From: Candidatus Aminicenantales bacterium | GTDB lineage: Bacteria; Acidobacteriota; Aminicenantia; Aminicenantales; UBA4085 | Assembly: GCA_049515535.1 (NCBI GenBank) | Contig: JBEKTZ010000006.1 | Location: forward strand, 124,001 to 188,000 | DNA length: 64,000 nucleotides | Reading direction: 5' to 3' | In this document: in pieces, positions 35,619 to 42,185 of the stretch | Layout of the letters: every line of letters begins with the position of its first letter | Numbering within the stretch: position 1 is the first letter of the stretch | The notes under the pieces: generated by a model | Seen by the model: only the letters and a program-made list of their open reading frames with translations | Databases searched by the model: none | Told to the model about the DNA's origin: nothing | Position numbers and translations under genes: made by a program

Positions 35619-37504
35619 GAAAGCTGGCGCATCCCGATCACCTGGCCGCGTTGAGGAGGCAGGTCCTCGAGAACCGGCCCGTCCACTCGAAAACCGTCGT
35701 CGTCACAGCCGGAACGTGCGGCCAGGCGAGCGGCGCGCTCCCCGTCCTGGACGCTTTGAGGCGGGAGATCGCCCAAAAGGGACTCTCGGACAGCGTCGGC
35801 GTCGTGGTCACCGGCTGTCACGGCTTCTGCGAGATGGAGCCGAGCCTCATCATTTATCCCGAGGGTATTTTTTATAAAAAGCTCGAGCCCGGCGACATCC
35901 CGGCCATCGTCGCGGAAACCATCATCAAGAACAAGGTCATTCCCTCACTGACGTATGAAGACGCAGCCACCGGCAAGAGATACTCTCGCCAGAAAGACAT
36001 CCCTTTTTATCATAAGCAAACGCGGCTTCTAACCGAGCCCCATTTCCACATCGATCCCGATCATATCGAGGATTACATCGCCCTCGGCGGCTACCAGGCC
36101 CTGGCCAAGGCCCTTTTCGATATGACGTCGGAGAGCGTGATCGCCGAAATCAAAGCGTCCGGGTTGAGGGGGAGAGGAGGCGCCGGCTACCCGACCGGGA
36201 AAAAATGGGAGATATGCCGGGAGGCGCACGGCCATCCGAAATATGTCATCTGCAACGCGGACGAAGGCGACCCGGGCGCCTACATGAATCGGAGCCTGCT
36301 CGAGGGCAATCCTCATAGCGTCATCGAGGGAATGATCATCGGCGCCTACGCCATCGGCGCTCCCGAGGGCTTCATCTTCGTCCGCATGGAATATTCCGTG
36401 GCCGTGCGGCACGTGAACCGCGCCCTGGAGCAGGCGCGCAAGATCGGCCTGCTCGGACCGACGATCCTCGGCTCGGAATTTCATTTTGATATCCACATCG
36501 TCCGAGGCGCCGGGGCGTTCGTCTCCGGCGAAGAGACTTCGCTCATGGCCTCGATCGAAGGGAAGCGGGCGTTTCCGAGGCAGCGCCCCCCTTTTCCGGC
36601 CCAGGAAGGATTGTGGGGAAAGCCGACCAACATCAATAACGTGGAGACCTGGGCGAACGTGCCGCTGATCATCGACAAAGGCGCCATGGAATTCGCCGGG
36701 ATCGGGACGGAAAAGAGCAAAGGGACGAAGATCTTCTCTCTCGTCGGGAAAATCAACAATACGGGCCTCGTGGAAGTTCCCATGGGCCTCACCCTGCGAG
36801 AGATCGTCCACGATATCGGCGGCGGCGTTAAAAACAAGAAGAAACTGAAGGCCGTTCAAGCCGGAGGGCCTTCGGGCGGCTGCATCCCCGCGGACAAGAT
36901 CGGTCTTCAGATCGATTACGATTCGCTCCTTCAGGCCGGCGCGATCATGGGATCGGGCGGCCTGATCGTCATGGACGAGGATACGTGCATGGTGGATGTG
37001 GCCCGTTATTTTTTGAACTTCACCCAGGAGGAATCCTGCGGGAAATGCGTCCCGTGCCGCGTCGGGACCCAGCAGATGTGCGAGATCCTGACCCGTATCA
37101 CGCAAGGAAAGGGCGCGGATGGCGACCTGGAACGGCTGGAAGAGCTGGCGGTTACCGTTAAAACAGGGTCGCTCTGCGGACTGGGGCAGACGGCCCCGAA
37201 TCCCGTCTCGACTACGCTCCGCTACTTCCGTGATGAATACAGAGCCCATATCGAGGACCGCTGCTGCCCGGCCCTCGTCTGCAAAGACTTGATTGCGTTT
37301 TATGTCGAGCCCGATAAATGCACGGGCTGTCTCCTTTGCCGAGAGAGTTGTCCGGTAAAGGCCATCCGCGGCGAACGGAAAAAGGTCCATGTCATCGACC
37401 AGGCCGCCTGCGTAAAATGCGGCGCCTGTTTCGATATCTGCCCCGCGAAAGTGCGGGCCGTCTCCCGGTTGACGGGCGGGGACAGGCGGAAGATCGCATC
37501 ATGA
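35615..37504 (+). CDS. NuoF/HydB-like NADH- and FMN-binding Fe-S subunit
   Basis: GLRGRGGAG, CNADEGDPGA, GEET, ESCGKCVPCR, SLCGLG, two C-terminal CxxCxxCxxxC. Confidence 0.92.
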   Translation: MRKLAHPDHLAALRRQVLENRPVHSKTVVVTAGTCGQASGALPVLDALRREIAQKGLSDSVGVVVTGCHGFCEMEPSLIIYPEGIFYKKLEPGDIPAIVAETIIKNKVIPSLTYEDAATGKRYSRQKDIPFYHKQTRLLTEPHFHIDPDHIEDYIALGGYQALAKALFDMTSESVIAEIKASGLRGRGGAGYPTGKKWEICREAHGHPKYVICNADEGDPGAYMNRSLLEGNPHSVIEGMIIGAYAIGAPEGFIFVRMEYSVAVRHVNRALEQARKIGLLGPTILGSEFHFDIHIVRGAGAFVSGEETSLMASIEGKRAFPRQRPPFPAQEGLWGKPTNINNVETWANVPLIIDKGAMEFAGIGTEKSKGTKIFSLVGKINNTGLVEVPMGLTLREIVHDIGGGVKNKKKLKAVQAGGPSGGCIPADKIGLQIDYDSLLQAGAIMGSGGLIVMDEDTCMVDVARYFLNFTQEESCGKCVPCRVGTQQMCEILTRITQGKGADGDLERLEELAVTVKTGSLCGLGQTAPNPVSTTLRYFRDEYRAHIEDRCCPALVCKDLIAFYVEPDKCTGCLLCRESCPVKAIRGERKKVHVIDQAACVKCGACFDICPAKVRAVSRLTGGDRRKIAS

Positions 37505-39798
37505 AGATCACCATCGATAAGAAGACGATCGAAGTCGACGGGCGGATAACCGTCCTCGAAACCGCCCGGGAACATGGGATCTATATCCCGTCCCTCTGCG
37601 ATCATCCCCGCCTCGAGCCTTTTGCGGCCTGCCGACTCTGCCTGGTCGAGATCAAGGGCCGGAAAGGTTACAGCCCCGCCTGCAGCACTTATGCCGAAGA
37701 CGGCCTGGACATCACGACCCAAAAGCCGGAACTCCAAAAGCTGAGACGAAACATCCTTGAGTTCATCCTTTCCGAACATCCCAGCGCCTGCCTGATCTGC
37801 AGCGAGAAAAACACGTACGATGAGTGCAAATCCACGATCCGGAAGGTCGGGGAGACGACGGGCTGCATCTTGTGCTGGAAGAGCGGCCGCTGCGATCTGC
37901 AGAAGGTCGTGGAATATCTGCGGCTGGAGAAGGTCGAATTCCCCGCCGTCTATCGAAACTCCGATGTCCGCAAGGATGACCCGTTCATCGATCGGGATTA
38001 CAACCTTTGCATTCTCTGCGGACGCTGCGTCCGGATCTGCCATGAGGTCCGCGGCGTATCGGCGCTGTCCTTCATCCGGCGCGGGCCTTGGACGGCGATC
38101 GGGACGGAGCTCGACGGCCGGCTTTTCGAAACGGATTGCCAGTTCTGCGGCGCCTGCGTGGACGTCTGTCCGACGGGAGCGCTGGCCGAACGGGCCGTCC
38201 GCTACGACGCGGCTCCCGACGCGAAAAAAGACGCGGTCTGCGCCATGTGCGGCCAGGGATGCCGGTTGACCATCGAGCTCCGGGAAGGAAGAATCCGGCG
38301 CTCGGTTCCAGCGGATGACGGCGCCGTGAACAGGGGTCAGGCGTGCGTCAAAGGCCGGTTTCTCGTCCGCGACGCGGTGTCTCACCCGCGAAGGATCCTT
38401 CGGCCTCTCGTGCGGAAGAACGGCGGACTCGAAGAGACGTCCTGGGACGATGCGTTGAGCCGGGCCGCGGCCGGGCTGTCCCGGTTCAAGGGCGAGGACA
38501 TCGCCCTCTTTGGATCGGCCCAGCATTCCTGCGAAGACGCGTATCTTTTCCGAAAATTCGGCCGGGAGGGATTGACGTCGGAACATATCGCCGGGCCTGA
38601 AGATTTTTCGGCTGCGGCCAGGCTCGCGCGCTTCGAGAGATCGAACGGTCTCGCGGCGGCGCTGAATTTCCGGATCGCCGATATCGGCAAGGCGCGAACG
38701 ATCGTCGTCTTCGGCGAAGACCTTCCCGCGGAGCATCCCCTGATCTGGCTCGAGGTCTTCCGGGCGCTGCGCCGCGGAGCCAAGATGATCCTGGCCGGTT
38801 CCAAGGAATTGTGTTTCCATCGCTGCGCTTCGGGCTGGCTGCGGCTCGGACCGGAAAAAGGAGGCGTCCTTCTGACGGCCCTATCCAAAATGCTTCTTGA
38901 AAGCCATGACGCCGGCGGCGCGGTCAAGGCTGACGGCTTCGCCGAATTCCAAAAGCGATTGGAGGATTTCGATCTGCCCGAAGCTCTGGCCCGAATGGGA
39001 ATCGCCGAAGAAAAACTGAACCGGCTGGCCCTGATCCTGGAAAAGCGAAAACCCGCCGCGCTTCTTTTCGGCGCGAATTTCTGTGAAGGGCCTTACGGAG
39101 AGACGAACCTCGAGGCCATGGAAAACCTGGCCTTTCTGATAGAGGGGAGGCTTTTTCCCTTGGCCGCCGACGCCAATACCCGCGGGGCCCTGGCGATCTC
39201 CCAAGCTTATGAAACGAACAAAGAAGATCCCGATCGGGTTCTGTCTTTGATCCGCCGAGGTGTCTTCAAAGCGCTATATCTCGCCGGGTCGGCGCCGAAA
39301 CTGGAAAGAGGAAAGGCCGAGTTCGTGATCGTCCAAAGCCCATACGCGACCGAGAATCTCGATATCGCCGATGTCGTTCTTCCTCAAACGACGTTTGCGG
39401 AATCCGACGGCGCGTTTGTGAATACGGAAGGCCGGGCGCAAGCGAGCCCGCGGGCGATCGAGCCCGCGGGGGAGTCCAGGCCCGGATGGCGCATCGTCCG
39501 CGATCTTGCTCAAAAAATGGGTTTGTCCGGCTTTGCTTTCGCGAATGTGACCGCCGTATTCGAGGCGATGGCCAAATCCGTTCCGGGCTTTCACGGAATG
39601 AAGGCCGGAGGCCTGGGCCGGGAGACGTTCCTCCAAGAACAGGCCCGGAACGGAAAAAAGTTCATCTCGACCGGGCCGCCCCAAGCGTCGGACGGCTCCT
39701 CCGCTTCTCCGTTCGACAGCAGCTCCGATATCTATGAAGGATTAGACATGGCCCAAGACCATCAAAGCTTGAATCTCATCAGGAAACGGAAATTCTGA
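37501..39798 (+). CDS. NuoG/FdhF-like Fe-S subunit with molybdopterin-fold domain
   Basis: IPSLC...CRLC...PAC, HPSACLIC, CILCGRCVRIC, CQFCGACVDVCP, CAMCGQGC...CVKG, DGAFVNTEGR. Confidence 0.85.
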   Translation: MKITIDKKTIEVDGRITVLETAREHGIYIPSLCDHPRLEPFAACRLCLVEIKGRKGYSPACSTYAEDGLDITTQKPELQKLRRNILEFILSEHPSACLICSEKNTYDECKSTIRKVGETTGCILCWKSGRCDLQKVVEYLRLEKVEFPAVYRNSDVRKDDPFIDRDYNLCILCGRCVRICHEVRGVSALSFIRRGPWTAIGTELDGRLFETDCQFCGACVDVCPTGALAERAVRYDAAPDAKKDAVCAMCGQGCRLTIELREGRIRRSVPADDGAVNRGQACVKGRFLVRDAVSHPRRILRPLVRKNGGLEETSWDDALSRAAAGLSRFKGEDIALFGSAQHSCEDAYLFRKFGREGLTSEHIAGPEDFSAAARLARFERSNGLAAALNFRIADIGKARTIVVFGEDLPAEHPLIWLEVFRALRRGAKMILAGSKELCFHRCASGWLRLGPEKGGVLLTALSKMLLESHDAGGAVKADGFAEFQKRLEDFDLPEALARMGIAEEKLNRLALILEKRKPAALLFGANFCEGPYGETNLEAMENLAFLIEGRLFPLAADANTRGALAISQAYETNKEDPDRVLSLIRRGVFKALYLAGSAPKLERGKAEFVIVQSPYATENLDIADVVLPQTTFAESDGAFVNTEGRAQASPRAIEPAGESRPGWRIVRDLAQKMGLSGFAFANVTAVFEAMAKSVPGFHGMKAGGLGRETFLQEQARNGKKFISTGPPQASDGSSASPFDSSSDIYEGLDMAQDHQSLNLIRKRKF

Positions 39799-40304
39799 TG
39801 GCTAGGATCCTGGACCGCCGCCTCGTCCCCAACCTTCATCTTCTCGAAGTCCACGCCCCCGAATTGGCGAGAAAATGCCGGCCCGGGCAATTCGTCATTA
39901 TCATGCCCGACGAGAAAGGAGAACGGATCCCCCTCTCCATCGCCGACTGGGACGAGAGGGAAATGACCGAAAAGAAGAGCGATCTGCCGCCCGATCTCCG
40001 GGAGAGGCTCAAAGCGGAGTTCGAAAAGGACTGGCGCAAAGAACTGCACAAAGCTCTTCCCGTCAAAGAGCGGATGAAGATTCCGCGCCGGATGATGCCG
40101 GAGCGGGAGTCCAGAATCCGAAACCGCGATTTCAAGGAAGTCAACCTTGGTCTCGAGGTCGAAGAGGCCCTCGCCGAAGCAGGGGTTTATGCGGGCGGAA
40201 ATATCATCCGGGGCGGATCGACGGTCATTTTGGCCATGGGTGACGGCCGGACCGCGGCCGCGGAAATCGACAAATATTTAAGAAAGAAGAAGCGCCCGGC
40301 ATGA
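39798..40304 (+). pseudogene. Collapsed nfnA-nfnB (sudBA/gltD-like) remnant with two internal deletions
   Basis: aa 1-52 NfnA N-terminus (PGQFVII..GERIPLSIAD); from aa 56 NfnB N-terminus (FKEVNLG..EEALAEA); then NfnB C-terminus (GVYAGG..TVILAMGDGR). Confidence 0.8.
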
Positions 40305-40963
40305 GACAAAGCGACCTGTTTCCGGGAACCGCGGGCCATATCGGAACCGACGAATCCGGAAAAGGCGATTATTTCGGCCCGCTCGTCATCGCCGGTTTTT
40401 TTCTTCCGGACGGCCAGGCGCACGTCCTCAAGGAACTCGGAGTCAAGGACAGCAAAAAACTCTCGGATAACCGCTGCCGGGAAATCGCGGAGACATTGAC
40501 GGCCGGCTATCCGCACGCGATCGTCGCCATCGGTCCCGAAAAATACAACGAGCTCTACGCCAAGATCCGCAACCTGAACAAAATGCTGGCTTGGGGACAC
40601 GCGCGCGTCATCGAGAATATCCTGGCCGATGTGCCATGCGCCACGGCCGTCACCGACCAGTTCGGCGACGAGAGATTCGTCCTGAACGCTCTGATGAAGC
40701 ATGGGAAAAATATCGAGCTCATCCAGCGGACCAAGGGGGAGTCCGATCCGGCGGTGGCGGCGGCTTCCATCCTGGCCCGGGCGGAATTCTTGAAGCGGCT
40801 TCATCTTTTGGGACGAGAATGGAGCCAGATCCTGCCTAAAGGGGCCGGGCCGCAGGTCGAAACGGCCGCCGTCGCCCTCATCCGCAAGTACGGCGCTGGC
40901 GTCCTGGATAAAACCGTAAAGAAGCATTTTAAAATCACGGAAAGAGTGCTCAAGGCGGTTTAA
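40301..40963 (+). CDS. rnhC: Ribonuclease HIII, catalytic domain only
   Basis: IGTDESGKGDYFGPLV, GVKDSKKL, YNELY, DQF, AVAAASILAR, LPKGAG, KKHFK. Confidence 0.88.
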   Translation: MRQSDLFPGTAGHIGTDESGKGDYFGPLVIAGFFLPDGQAHVLKELGVKDSKKLSDNRCREIAETLTAGYPHAIVAIGPEKYNELYAKIRNLNKMLAWGHARVIENILADVPCATAVTDQFGDERFVLNALMKHGKNIELIQRTKGESDPAVAAASILARAEFLKRLHLLGREWSQILPKGAGPQVETAAVALIRKYGAGVLDKTVKKHFKITERVLKAV

Positions 40964-40967
40964 AGAC

Positions 40968-42185
40968 ATGATCATCCTTCTGAAGATCGTCACCATCATC
41001 CTGGTCCTTCTTTTTCTCATCCGGATGAAATGGGACCTCGGCCTGTCGCTGTTCATCGATTCCGCCATGACGGCGATCCTGTTCAAGATGAACATCACGG
41101 ATTTCGCGAAAAACGTCGGAAGCGCGCTCATCTCCGGCGAAACCCTGAGCCTCGTCGCCATCGTGATCCTCGTCCTCTATTTGGGAAATTTCCTCCAGGT
41201 CGGCGGCCATTTCCGGAGAATGGTGGAAGCCCTCAAAAACCTCGTTCGTGACCCGCGGCTGATTTTGGCCATCCCGTCCGCGTTCATCGGGCTTCTTCCC
41301 ATGACGGCGGGGGCCATGATGGGCGCGCCGATCGTCGAGGAGGCGGCCCGGCGATGGAACCTGACGGCGCCATGGAAGACGTTTTTCAATTATTGGTTCC
41401 GGCATATCTGGGAATATAGCTGGCCGCTTTATATCAATTTGATCTTGGCGGCGGCCATCGTCCAGGCGCCGCTCAAGAAGATCTGCTACACGCAGTTCCC
41501 TTTCACGATTCTGGCCGCGGCTGCGGGGCTGGTCGTTCTCTTCAAGAATGTCCCGTTTCTTCCACCGGAACAATACGCCGCGAAGACATTCATGGACGTC
41601 GTCAGAGTCTTCTGGAGCATCTGGCCGATCTTCCTGACGATCATCTTGAATTTCGTCTTCCGATTGAACCTGCTCGTCGCTCTGGGAATAGCGAGTATCC
41701 TGACCCAGGTGTTTTCCAGAATGAGGCTCAAGGACCGTTGGGAGCTCGTCCTGGGAAGTCTTTCGCCTAAGATCATCCTGCTCACCGCCGCGGTCATGGT
41801 CTTCAAACAGATCCTGGAAGCGTCGGGGGCCCTGGATTCGGTCGTTCGCGTGTTTCCGCCTCACGGCGCTACGGCTTACATCCTGCTTTTCGCGGCGCCG
41901 TTTTTCGTCGGACTGCTGACCGGCGTCAACCAGGCCTTCGTGGCCATCTCGTTCCCTCTCCTCCTGCCGATCATCGGCAAGGGACAGCCGGACATGATCC
42001 TCCTTCTCTTCGCCTATGTCAGCGGATTTTGCGGCATTTTGCTGTCCCCCGCCCATCTCTGCCTGGCCCTGACGGCGGATTATTTCAAGGCCGAGCTGCG
42101 CGCGGTCTACAAGATCTTGATCTGGCCCGTGAGCGTCGTCTTCTCGGCTGCGTTCCTGGCCTTATTGATATTCAGGATTTTATAA
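40968..42185 (+). CDS. DUF401 family membrane protein
   Basis: IGLLPM..GA...AP, NYWFRHIWE..WPLY, LSPAHLCL. Confidence 0.82.
   Translation: MIILLKIVTIILVLLFLIRMKWDLGLSLFIDSAMTAILFKMNITDFAKNVGSALISGETLSLVAIVILVLYLGNFLQVGGHFRRMVEALKNLVRDPRLILAIPSAFIGLLPMTAGAMMGAPIVEEAARRWNLTAPWKTFFNYWFRHIWEYSWPLYINLILAAAIVQAPLKKICYTQFPFTILAAAAGLVVLFKNVPFLPPEQYAAKTFMDVVRVFWSIWPIFLTIILNFVFRLNLLVALGIASILTQVFSRMRLKDRWELVLGSLSPKIILLTAAVMVFKQILEASGALDSVVRVFPPHGATAYILLFAAPFFVGLLTGVNQAFVAISFPLLLPIIGKGQPDMILLLFAYVSGFCGILLSPAHLCLALTADYFKAELRAVYKILIWPVSVVFSAAFLALLIFRIL

Follow-up and report, generated by a model that had tools for sequence, protein, structure and literature searches.

Canonical RNases HIII, such as RnhC of Bacillus subtilis and the enzymes of Geobacillus stearothermophilus (2D0A in the PDB) and Thermovibrio ammonificans (4PY5), combine a catalytic domain carrying four acidic residues with an N-terminal TBP-like domain that binds the RNA/DNA hybrid. 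The domain is treated as characteristic of the family in passages of PMC9719913 and PMC4132731, and those of the latter place its contact with the hybrid about 10 bp from the scissile phosphate and state that it enhances binding. Archaeal RNase HII and eukaryotic RNase H2, the latter through its subunit B, are described in passages of PMC3089482 and PMC13492167 as binding PCNA via a PCNA-interacting peptide (PIP) box. For Escherichia coli, excerpts of PMC11253446 report that the recruiting partner is SSB for RNase HI and RNA polymerase for RNase HII. How bacterial RNases H reach primers, R-loops and embedded ribonucleotides is only partly understood. This work concerns a stretch of 64,000 nucleotides (the window) from Candidatus Aminicenantales bacterium (GenBank assembly GCA_049515535.1, contig JBEKTZ010000006.1, positions 124,001 to 188,000 of the forward strand), in which the gene rnhC encodes an RNase HIII lacking the TBP-like domain and carrying a 12-residue tail with the motif Q-x-x-L-F-P instead. 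This motif, M-x-Q-x-x-L-F-P in its full form, is probably a binding motif for the bacterial sliding clamp (beta clamp, DnaN), borne on a flexible tail of about 12 residues.

The rnhC gene is a 220-codon open reading frame (ORF) at positions 40301..40963 of the forward strand, and the N-terminus of its product is MRQSDLFPGTAGHIGTDESGKGD. MRQSDLFP opens the protein, such that Q3-S-D-L-F7 is followed by six residues (PGTAGH) and then by I14; an earlier note on this DNA, which had placed the motif seven residues before IGTDESGKGD, was off by one. The ATG at 40301 is the first start codon past the in-frame stop and overlaps the stop codon of the upstream ORF (ATGA). As no later in-frame ATG, GTG or TTG was seen before the invariant D17/E18 when the sequence was read by eye, the start is secure, and the one on which the earlier note relied is correct. 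A wrong start was also rejected by comparison with 42 species-representative loci, in which the start codon lies 13-15 codons 5' of the G of GTDESGKGD; it is at -14 relative to this G in 40 of them, is mostly ATG, and alternative starts are possible in a few.

The product was matched by the NCBIfam rnhC equivalog model TIGR00716 with 197.6 bits (cut-off 161.2), only over profile positions 82-283 of 284, and RNase HII models gave at most 65 bits, below their cut-offs. The PDB chains 2D0A, 4PY5 and 3VN5 align only from their residues 75-89 on, with residues 89-303 of 2D0A and 75-267 of 4PY5 aligned to the window protein. The TBP-like domain of about 70-90 aa is therefore absent, 13 residues precede the catalytic domain, and no coding room remains 5' of rnhC, where the DNA holds another gene. 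Thus, from the Pfam, TIGR00716 and PDB alignments, the protein is an RNase HIII catalytic domain without the TBP-like N-domain, just as the earlier note had described its 220-aa RNase HIII starting MRQSDLF. Residues D17, E18, D119 and E147, presumably the catalytic ones, are invariant in a 111-sequence alignment, and the gene is best explained as coding for an active RNase HIII with no domain other than the catalytic one. A 324-aa antisense ORF at 40187-41161 of the reverse strand spans the whole of rnhC and is longer than it; it is probably a spurious frame.

A lone motif of this kind could be due to chance, as Qxx[LIM]F within residues 2-12 was found in 10 of all 7010 ORFs of at least 120 aa in the genome (about 0.14%), and it is conservation that decides. 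The best 120 homologues from a 5.8-billion-protein collection were 66-100% identical to the window protein and almost all 219-224 aa long, the few named ones being labelled Aminicenantes or Acidobacteriota. M-x-Q-x-x-L-F-P stands at the start of nearly all of them. Entropy was counted on the 117 homologues with a tail of at least 14 residues, three with shorter tails being dropped. L6 was present in 115 of the 117 (0.14 bits), F7 in 110 (0.36 bits), Q3 in 107 (0.60 bits) and P8 in 100 (0.99 bits), and tail positions 2, 4, 5, 9, 10 and 11 were variable at 2.1-2.9 bits.

The species-level set, comprising the window and the 42 species-representative loci from GTDB with one row corrected for a one-residue offset, has Q in 40/43, L in 41/43 and F in 40/43. 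The exceptions are L023 and L044 (no Q), L026 (LY), L036 (FF), L039 (no motif), L040 (IF) and L043 (LI). Q is encoded by CAA in 23 cases and CAG in 16, L by five different codons, and F by TTT in 28 and TTC in 11. Because the synonymous codons vary and the DNA 5' of rnhC is unrelated between the loci, selection acts at the protein level. A nucleotide-level constraint, such as a ribosome-binding site or the overlap with the upstream gene, was rejected on the same grounds, the overlap being 4 nt. In a sample of 31 genomes from nine families of the same order, which overlaps with the source of the 42 loci and is not independent of it, rnhC was present in 29; L-F or L-I stands at the expected place in every one of these, and the whole of Qxx-L-F/I in 25. 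The pattern of conservation argues that the tail motif is no chance match and that Q, L, F and P are under strong protein-level selection.

Bacterial beta-clamp partners, including DnaE, Pol II, Pol IV, MutS, MutL and Hda, bind through a pentapeptide of the consensus QL[SD]LF or QxxLF, which in Hda lies at the extreme N-terminus and so provides a precedent for an N-terminal position. The tail of RNase HIII resembles these partners in presenting a Q-x-x-L-F pentapeptide in a disordered terminus. The same pattern recurs in the same genome, as DnaE has QNSLF about 922 residues after its first Met, presumably close to the position of the QADMF motif of E. coli alpha (920), and MutS has QGLLF near its C-terminus; QSDLF at residues 3-7 of RNase HIII agrees with both. 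The gene for DnaN (366 aa), on contig C5 (L003:772-1872), adjoins dnaA, and E. coli beta matched the protein from 1-366 to 1-366 with 203.8 bits. TDGHRL and the C-terminal YV.MPM, which are taken here to form the peptide pocket, are invariant or nearly so, and judged by its sequence the cognate DnaN is canonical. A Y-family polymerase was dropped as an additional reference motif; its C-terminus has no QxxLF and its gene adjoins a DnaE2-like gene. This polymerase gene, on contig C20 (L084, L086), lies directly beside a second DnaE-like gene with a 942-aa open frame, and the pair is probably a mutagenesis cassette of the ImuB/DnaE2 type.

The AlphaFold2 model of RNase HIII has a mean predicted local distance difference test (pLDDT) value of 91.7; residues 1-10 have a mean of 62, and most of the rest is at 90 or above. 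Residues 1-11 were assigned as coil by DSSP. DnaN (79-row alignment) and the full RNase HIII (111-row alignment) were co-folded in three runs, together with three controls that had an unrelated protein in place of either DnaN or its partner. The score was 0.46 (runs 0.47, 0.46 and 0.45), the controls gave 0.00, 0.01 and 0.00, the runs shared at least 82% of their contacts and the pLDDT of the partner was at least 82. The mark applied is reached by 116 of 157 solved complexes and by 2 of 215 mismatched pairs. The co-fold with the cognate DnaN that the earlier note had called for thus passes its controls (0.46 against a best control of 0.01) and lends weak support to a pairing of DnaN and RNase HIII, from which DnaN binding may be inferred.

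The distribution of the motif was followed in a wider set of RNases HIII, made up of the 150 best representatives of 50%-identity clusters from 3524 hits at E <=0.001. Among these, 14 are short, 99 have the usual N-domain, 35 are longer and two lack the search pattern. The 134 full-length or longer forms have Qxx[LIM]F in one linker, at one N-terminus and at no C-terminus; that the motif is a remnant of the inter-domain linker of full-length enzymes was rejected, as 1/134 linkers match. Other N-domain-less RNases HIII, of the Nitrospira type and from other orders, share with the window enzyme a length of about 205-230 aa, the catalytic domain alone and a GxDESGKGD start, and differ in having tails of 4-13 residues that vary freely and have no Q-x-x-L-F. 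In the Nitrospira-type clade (records mostly named Nitrospira), the Q/L/F pattern was not found in 34 loci, those of 38 with at least 12 open codons upstream, and tail positions -12 to -3 stand at 2.1-3.5 bits. In the other orders of the class the tail is 4-11 residues long and QxxLF is missing; one such tail has EEKLF. Isolated cases that may be chance were noted under P0263 and P0270: an unrelated short RNase HIII representative with ...SPDLFAR at its end, and a full-length enzyme whose linker contains QTGLF.

In a tree of 158 catalytic domains, from which the two rows without the pattern and one fragment were left out, the motif-bearing sequences form one branch (SH-aLRT 97). Of its 13 rows, 10 carry the motif, Q is replaced in two, and one is an aberrant sequence. 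On the well-supported branches of this tree, the short form requires no fewer than four separate changes. RNase HIII was found in nine of 151 evenly sampled Acidobacteriota genomes, the window genome being one of the nine, and is short in all nine. The N-domain was thus lost first, on several occasions, and this order gained the Q-x-x-L-F-P tail afterwards. Loss of the N-domain is, as read from this tree and these sequences, polyphyletic and in this class predates the motif, which was added to an enzyme that was short already and did not replace the domain in a single step. The earlier note had put the motif in place of the TBP-like domain; the domain is indeed absent, and the wording overstates the case because its loss came several times and, in this class, before the motif. 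The note had also expected QxxLF in short RnhC orthologues, which is borne out within this clade and fails in the 34 mostly Nitrospira-type loci and in the other orders of the class.

Several observations weigh against a clamp-binding tail. Q3 is replaced in 10 of the 117 homologues, one species locus (L039) has no motif at all, and among the 29 same-order genomes with rnhC the Q three residues before L is missing in four and F is changed to I in three. Where the QL[SD]LF consensus of bacterial clamp partners has L as its second residue, this pentapeptide has S or P. The tether is also very short, since in the AlphaFold2 model the first beta-strand begins about 4-5 residues (P8-G12) after F7, which may constrain the geometry of docking. 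The other N-domain-less clades do without the motif, so a tether is not obligatory for such an enzyme. At scores up to 0.60 the co-fold mark is reached by only 18 of the 157 solved complexes and by both of the mismatched pairs that pass, so that a pass as weak as this one would more often be wrong than right unless the guess was likely beforehand. Its read-out is a score without an interface, by which the motif is not placed in the canonical pocket, and, as many clamp-peptide complexes are solved in the PDB, the pass may reflect likeness to them. The host organisms are uncultured, and binding to DnaN is a matter of inference.

Three other explanations of the tail were weighed. Selection on Q, L, F and P does not in itself name the partner, the co-fold favours DnaN weakly, and the excerpts of PMC11253446 on SSB and RNA polymerase indicate that other hubs recruit bacterial RNases H. 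The tail might hence be a functional short linear motif for a different partner, such as SSB, RNA polymerase, Pol I, a helicase or a protease adaptor for turnover, which is held to be unlikely while retaining some weight. Against such a partner, a disordered terminus bearing Q-x-x-L-F follows the clamp consensus, the pattern equals the motifs of the organism's own DnaE and MutS, the co-fold controls with unrelated proteins scored 0.00-0.01, and no other bacterial hub that recognises QxxLF is known to us.

A role within the enzyme, in which the tail would pack on the catalytic domain or touch the hybrid and so stand in, in minimal form, for the lost N-domain or its linker, would suit a motif only 4-5 residues from the first strand. 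It would also suit the enhancement of substrate binding by the canonical N-domain described in passages of PMC4132731, for the loss of which some compensation might be expected. The chance of such a role is nonetheless judged to be small: residues 1-11 are modelled as coil of low confidence on an otherwise confident structure, two other N-domain-less clades have free-varying or four-residue tails, the pattern occurs in one of the 134 linkers of longer forms, and a hydrophobic L-F pair with Q would not be a typical nucleic-acid contact. Finally, the motif could have no function and reflect chance or neutral inheritance among close relatives. Its occurrence near the N-terminus of about 0.14% of ORFs by chance and the relatedness of the homologues, which are hence not independent, can be cited in favour. 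Neutrality is very unlikely given the entropy of the tail, where six positions stand at 2.1-2.9 bits while Q, L and F stand at 0.14-0.60 bits, and given the codon variation, Q, L and F being written in several synonymous codons across nine families of the order.

If the tail binds the beta clamp, as is favoured here, L6 and F7, together with Q3, would enter the hydrophobic cleft between domains II and III of DnaN. Docked in this way, the nuclease would be held by DNA-bound clamps, such as those remaining where a completed Okazaki fragment has its 3' end, and would cut the RNA strand of an adjacent RNA/DNA hybrid: primers, and perhaps also R-loops or stretches of ribonucleotides. A clamp that stays behind at a 3' end turns its protein-binding face towards the primer of the preceding Okazaki fragment, and this primer would be the most plausible target; the second cleft of the clamp dimer would be free for a polymerase. 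DnaN would in this way be the partner of the motif and the fork the site of action, and the clamp would provide the DNA tethering that the TBP-like hybrid-binding domain gives canonical RNase HIII. Clamp tethering could compensate for the absent N-domain and substitute for it in function.

Such an arrangement would resemble PCNA-bound RNase HII and RNase H2, in that a type 2 RNase H sits on a sliding clamp by a short terminal peptide, here by predicted binding, and in the proposed steering of the nuclease to replication and repair substrates. It would differ from them in that the clamp is the bacterial beta clamp and the motif is QxxLF instead of a PIP box, and in that the motif lies at the N-terminus of RNase HIII, whereas the PIP box is at the C-terminus of RNase HII or H2B. 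The E. coli cases of RNase HI with SSB and RNase HII with RNA polymerase (excerpts of PMC11253446) are likewise examples of recruitment by a hub; both hub and motif differ.

The genome has two PF01351 matches, an RNase HII on contig C14 and the window RNase HIII, and RNase HI (PF00075) had no match in this 94%-complete genome. It thus shows the RNase HII plus HIII pattern without a detected RNase HI, and for genomes with H2 and H3 a passage of PMC4132731 records the view that RNase H3 replaces H1. The RNase HII (L001:1447-2085) ends ...FKLQAEKKLFSSS. A short C-terminal extension of RNase HII ending in x-x-L-F was found in 14 of 18 genomes of the window's family (relatives L088-L116), for instance as QPKLF, QAKLF, EKKLF or ERTLFE, and was missing from all 11 genomes of the order's other families. 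With a position like that of the PIP box in archaeal RNase HII, this tail is a candidate for a second clamp motif, here at the C-terminus. It can be imagined that both type 2 RNases H are clamp-tethered in this order of Aminicenantes, RNase HIII by its N-terminal Q-x-x-L-F-P and RNase HII, in the window's own family, by its C-terminal x-x-L-F, as a convergent bacterial counterpart of the PCNA systems with RNase HII and H2, the beta clamp having taken over the targeting of the lost hybrid-binding domain and primer removal being organised on a clamp 'toolbelt'; so extended a scheme is possible, though doubtful.

The longer RNases HIII of the wider set (35 of the 150 representatives, 374-942 aa, among P0123-P0269) carry several TBP-like, RnlA-like or DUF3378 repeats, or pieces of Lon_C/ChlI or kinase domains, before the nuclease, and other representatives have C-terminal HIT, HEPN_Swt1 or TPR domains (17 proteins scanned). 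Long forms are possible variants of defence or conflict systems. Homologues of about 600 aa, with roughly 380 extra N-terminal residues, were considered as fusions of DnaN and RNase HIII and rejected, as Pfam found repeated TBP-like, RnlA-like or DUF3378 modules, Lon_C and others in the extra part and no DnaN among the 17 scanned.

The features of the rnhC locus are collected in Table 1. All that remains of an NfnA/NfnB-like (PRK12778-type) oxidoreductase in the upstream ORF is ~55 residues from its N-terminal end, a segment of the middle and ~40 residues from its C-terminal end; in a relative (L120:2-1468), about 400 additional residues lie between these parts. The ORF is either an in-frame collapsed remnant or an assembly collapse. 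In relative G014 a 405-aa ORF, known by size and position only, lies directly 3' of rnhC.

Table 1 Features of the rnhC locus and its neighbours, in positions of the window.
Feature	Position	Strand	Basis or remark
826-aa NuoG/molybdopterin-type iron-sulfur protein	37318-39798		5' of the 168-aa ORF
168-aa NfnA/NfnB-like oxidoreductase remnant	39798..40304	+	Upstream neighbour; stop overlaps rnhC start
rnhC, N-domain-less RNase HIII, 220 aa plus stop	40301..40963	+	ORF, TIGR00716, Pfam
N-terminal tail, residues 1-12, predicted unstructured	40301..40336	+	DSSP, pLDDT
Q3-S-D-L6-F7-P8, candidate beta-clamp-binding motif (Q-x-x-L-F-P)	40307..40324	+	Conservation in homologues
RNase H-fold catalytic domain, residues 14-211	40340..40933	+	Pfam RNase_HII PF01351, 121 bits
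D17-E18 of the GTDESGKGD active-site motif	40349..40354	+	Invariant; aligned to DE of 2D0A
D119, third acidic active-site residue	40655..40657	+	Invariant; aligned to D of 'iiDeF' in 2D0A
E147, fourth acidic active-site residue	40739..40741	+	Invariant; aligned to E of 'kaES' in 2D0A
DUF401 / TIGR00529-type membrane protein	40968..42185	+	Downstream neighbour of rnhC

In the full-text literature, to the exclusion of subscription-only papers and supplements, neither a link between a bacterial RNase H and the clamp nor an N-domain-less RNase HIII was found, the nearest known systems being PCNA-bound archaeal RNase HII and eukaryotic RNase H2, and N-terminal clamp motifs like that of Hda. No RNase H was found among the beta-clamp partners described in the literature searched, in which the absence of any prior account of a clamp-tethered RNase HIII, as supposed in the earlier note, also held good. 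B. subtilis RNase HIII has been observed at forks according to excerpts of the literature, and passages from papers on the clamp and DnaN name no recruiting partner for it. Taken as a whole, the interpretation offered in the earlier note is partly supported, and the computational checks suggested there all turned out in its favour. If the proposed tethering is true, PCNA-directed RNase H2 would have its first counterpart in bacteria, the enzyme would offer a clean model for whether clamp tethering can replace a nucleic-acid-binding domain, and RNase H would join the clients that compete for the beta-clamp cleft.

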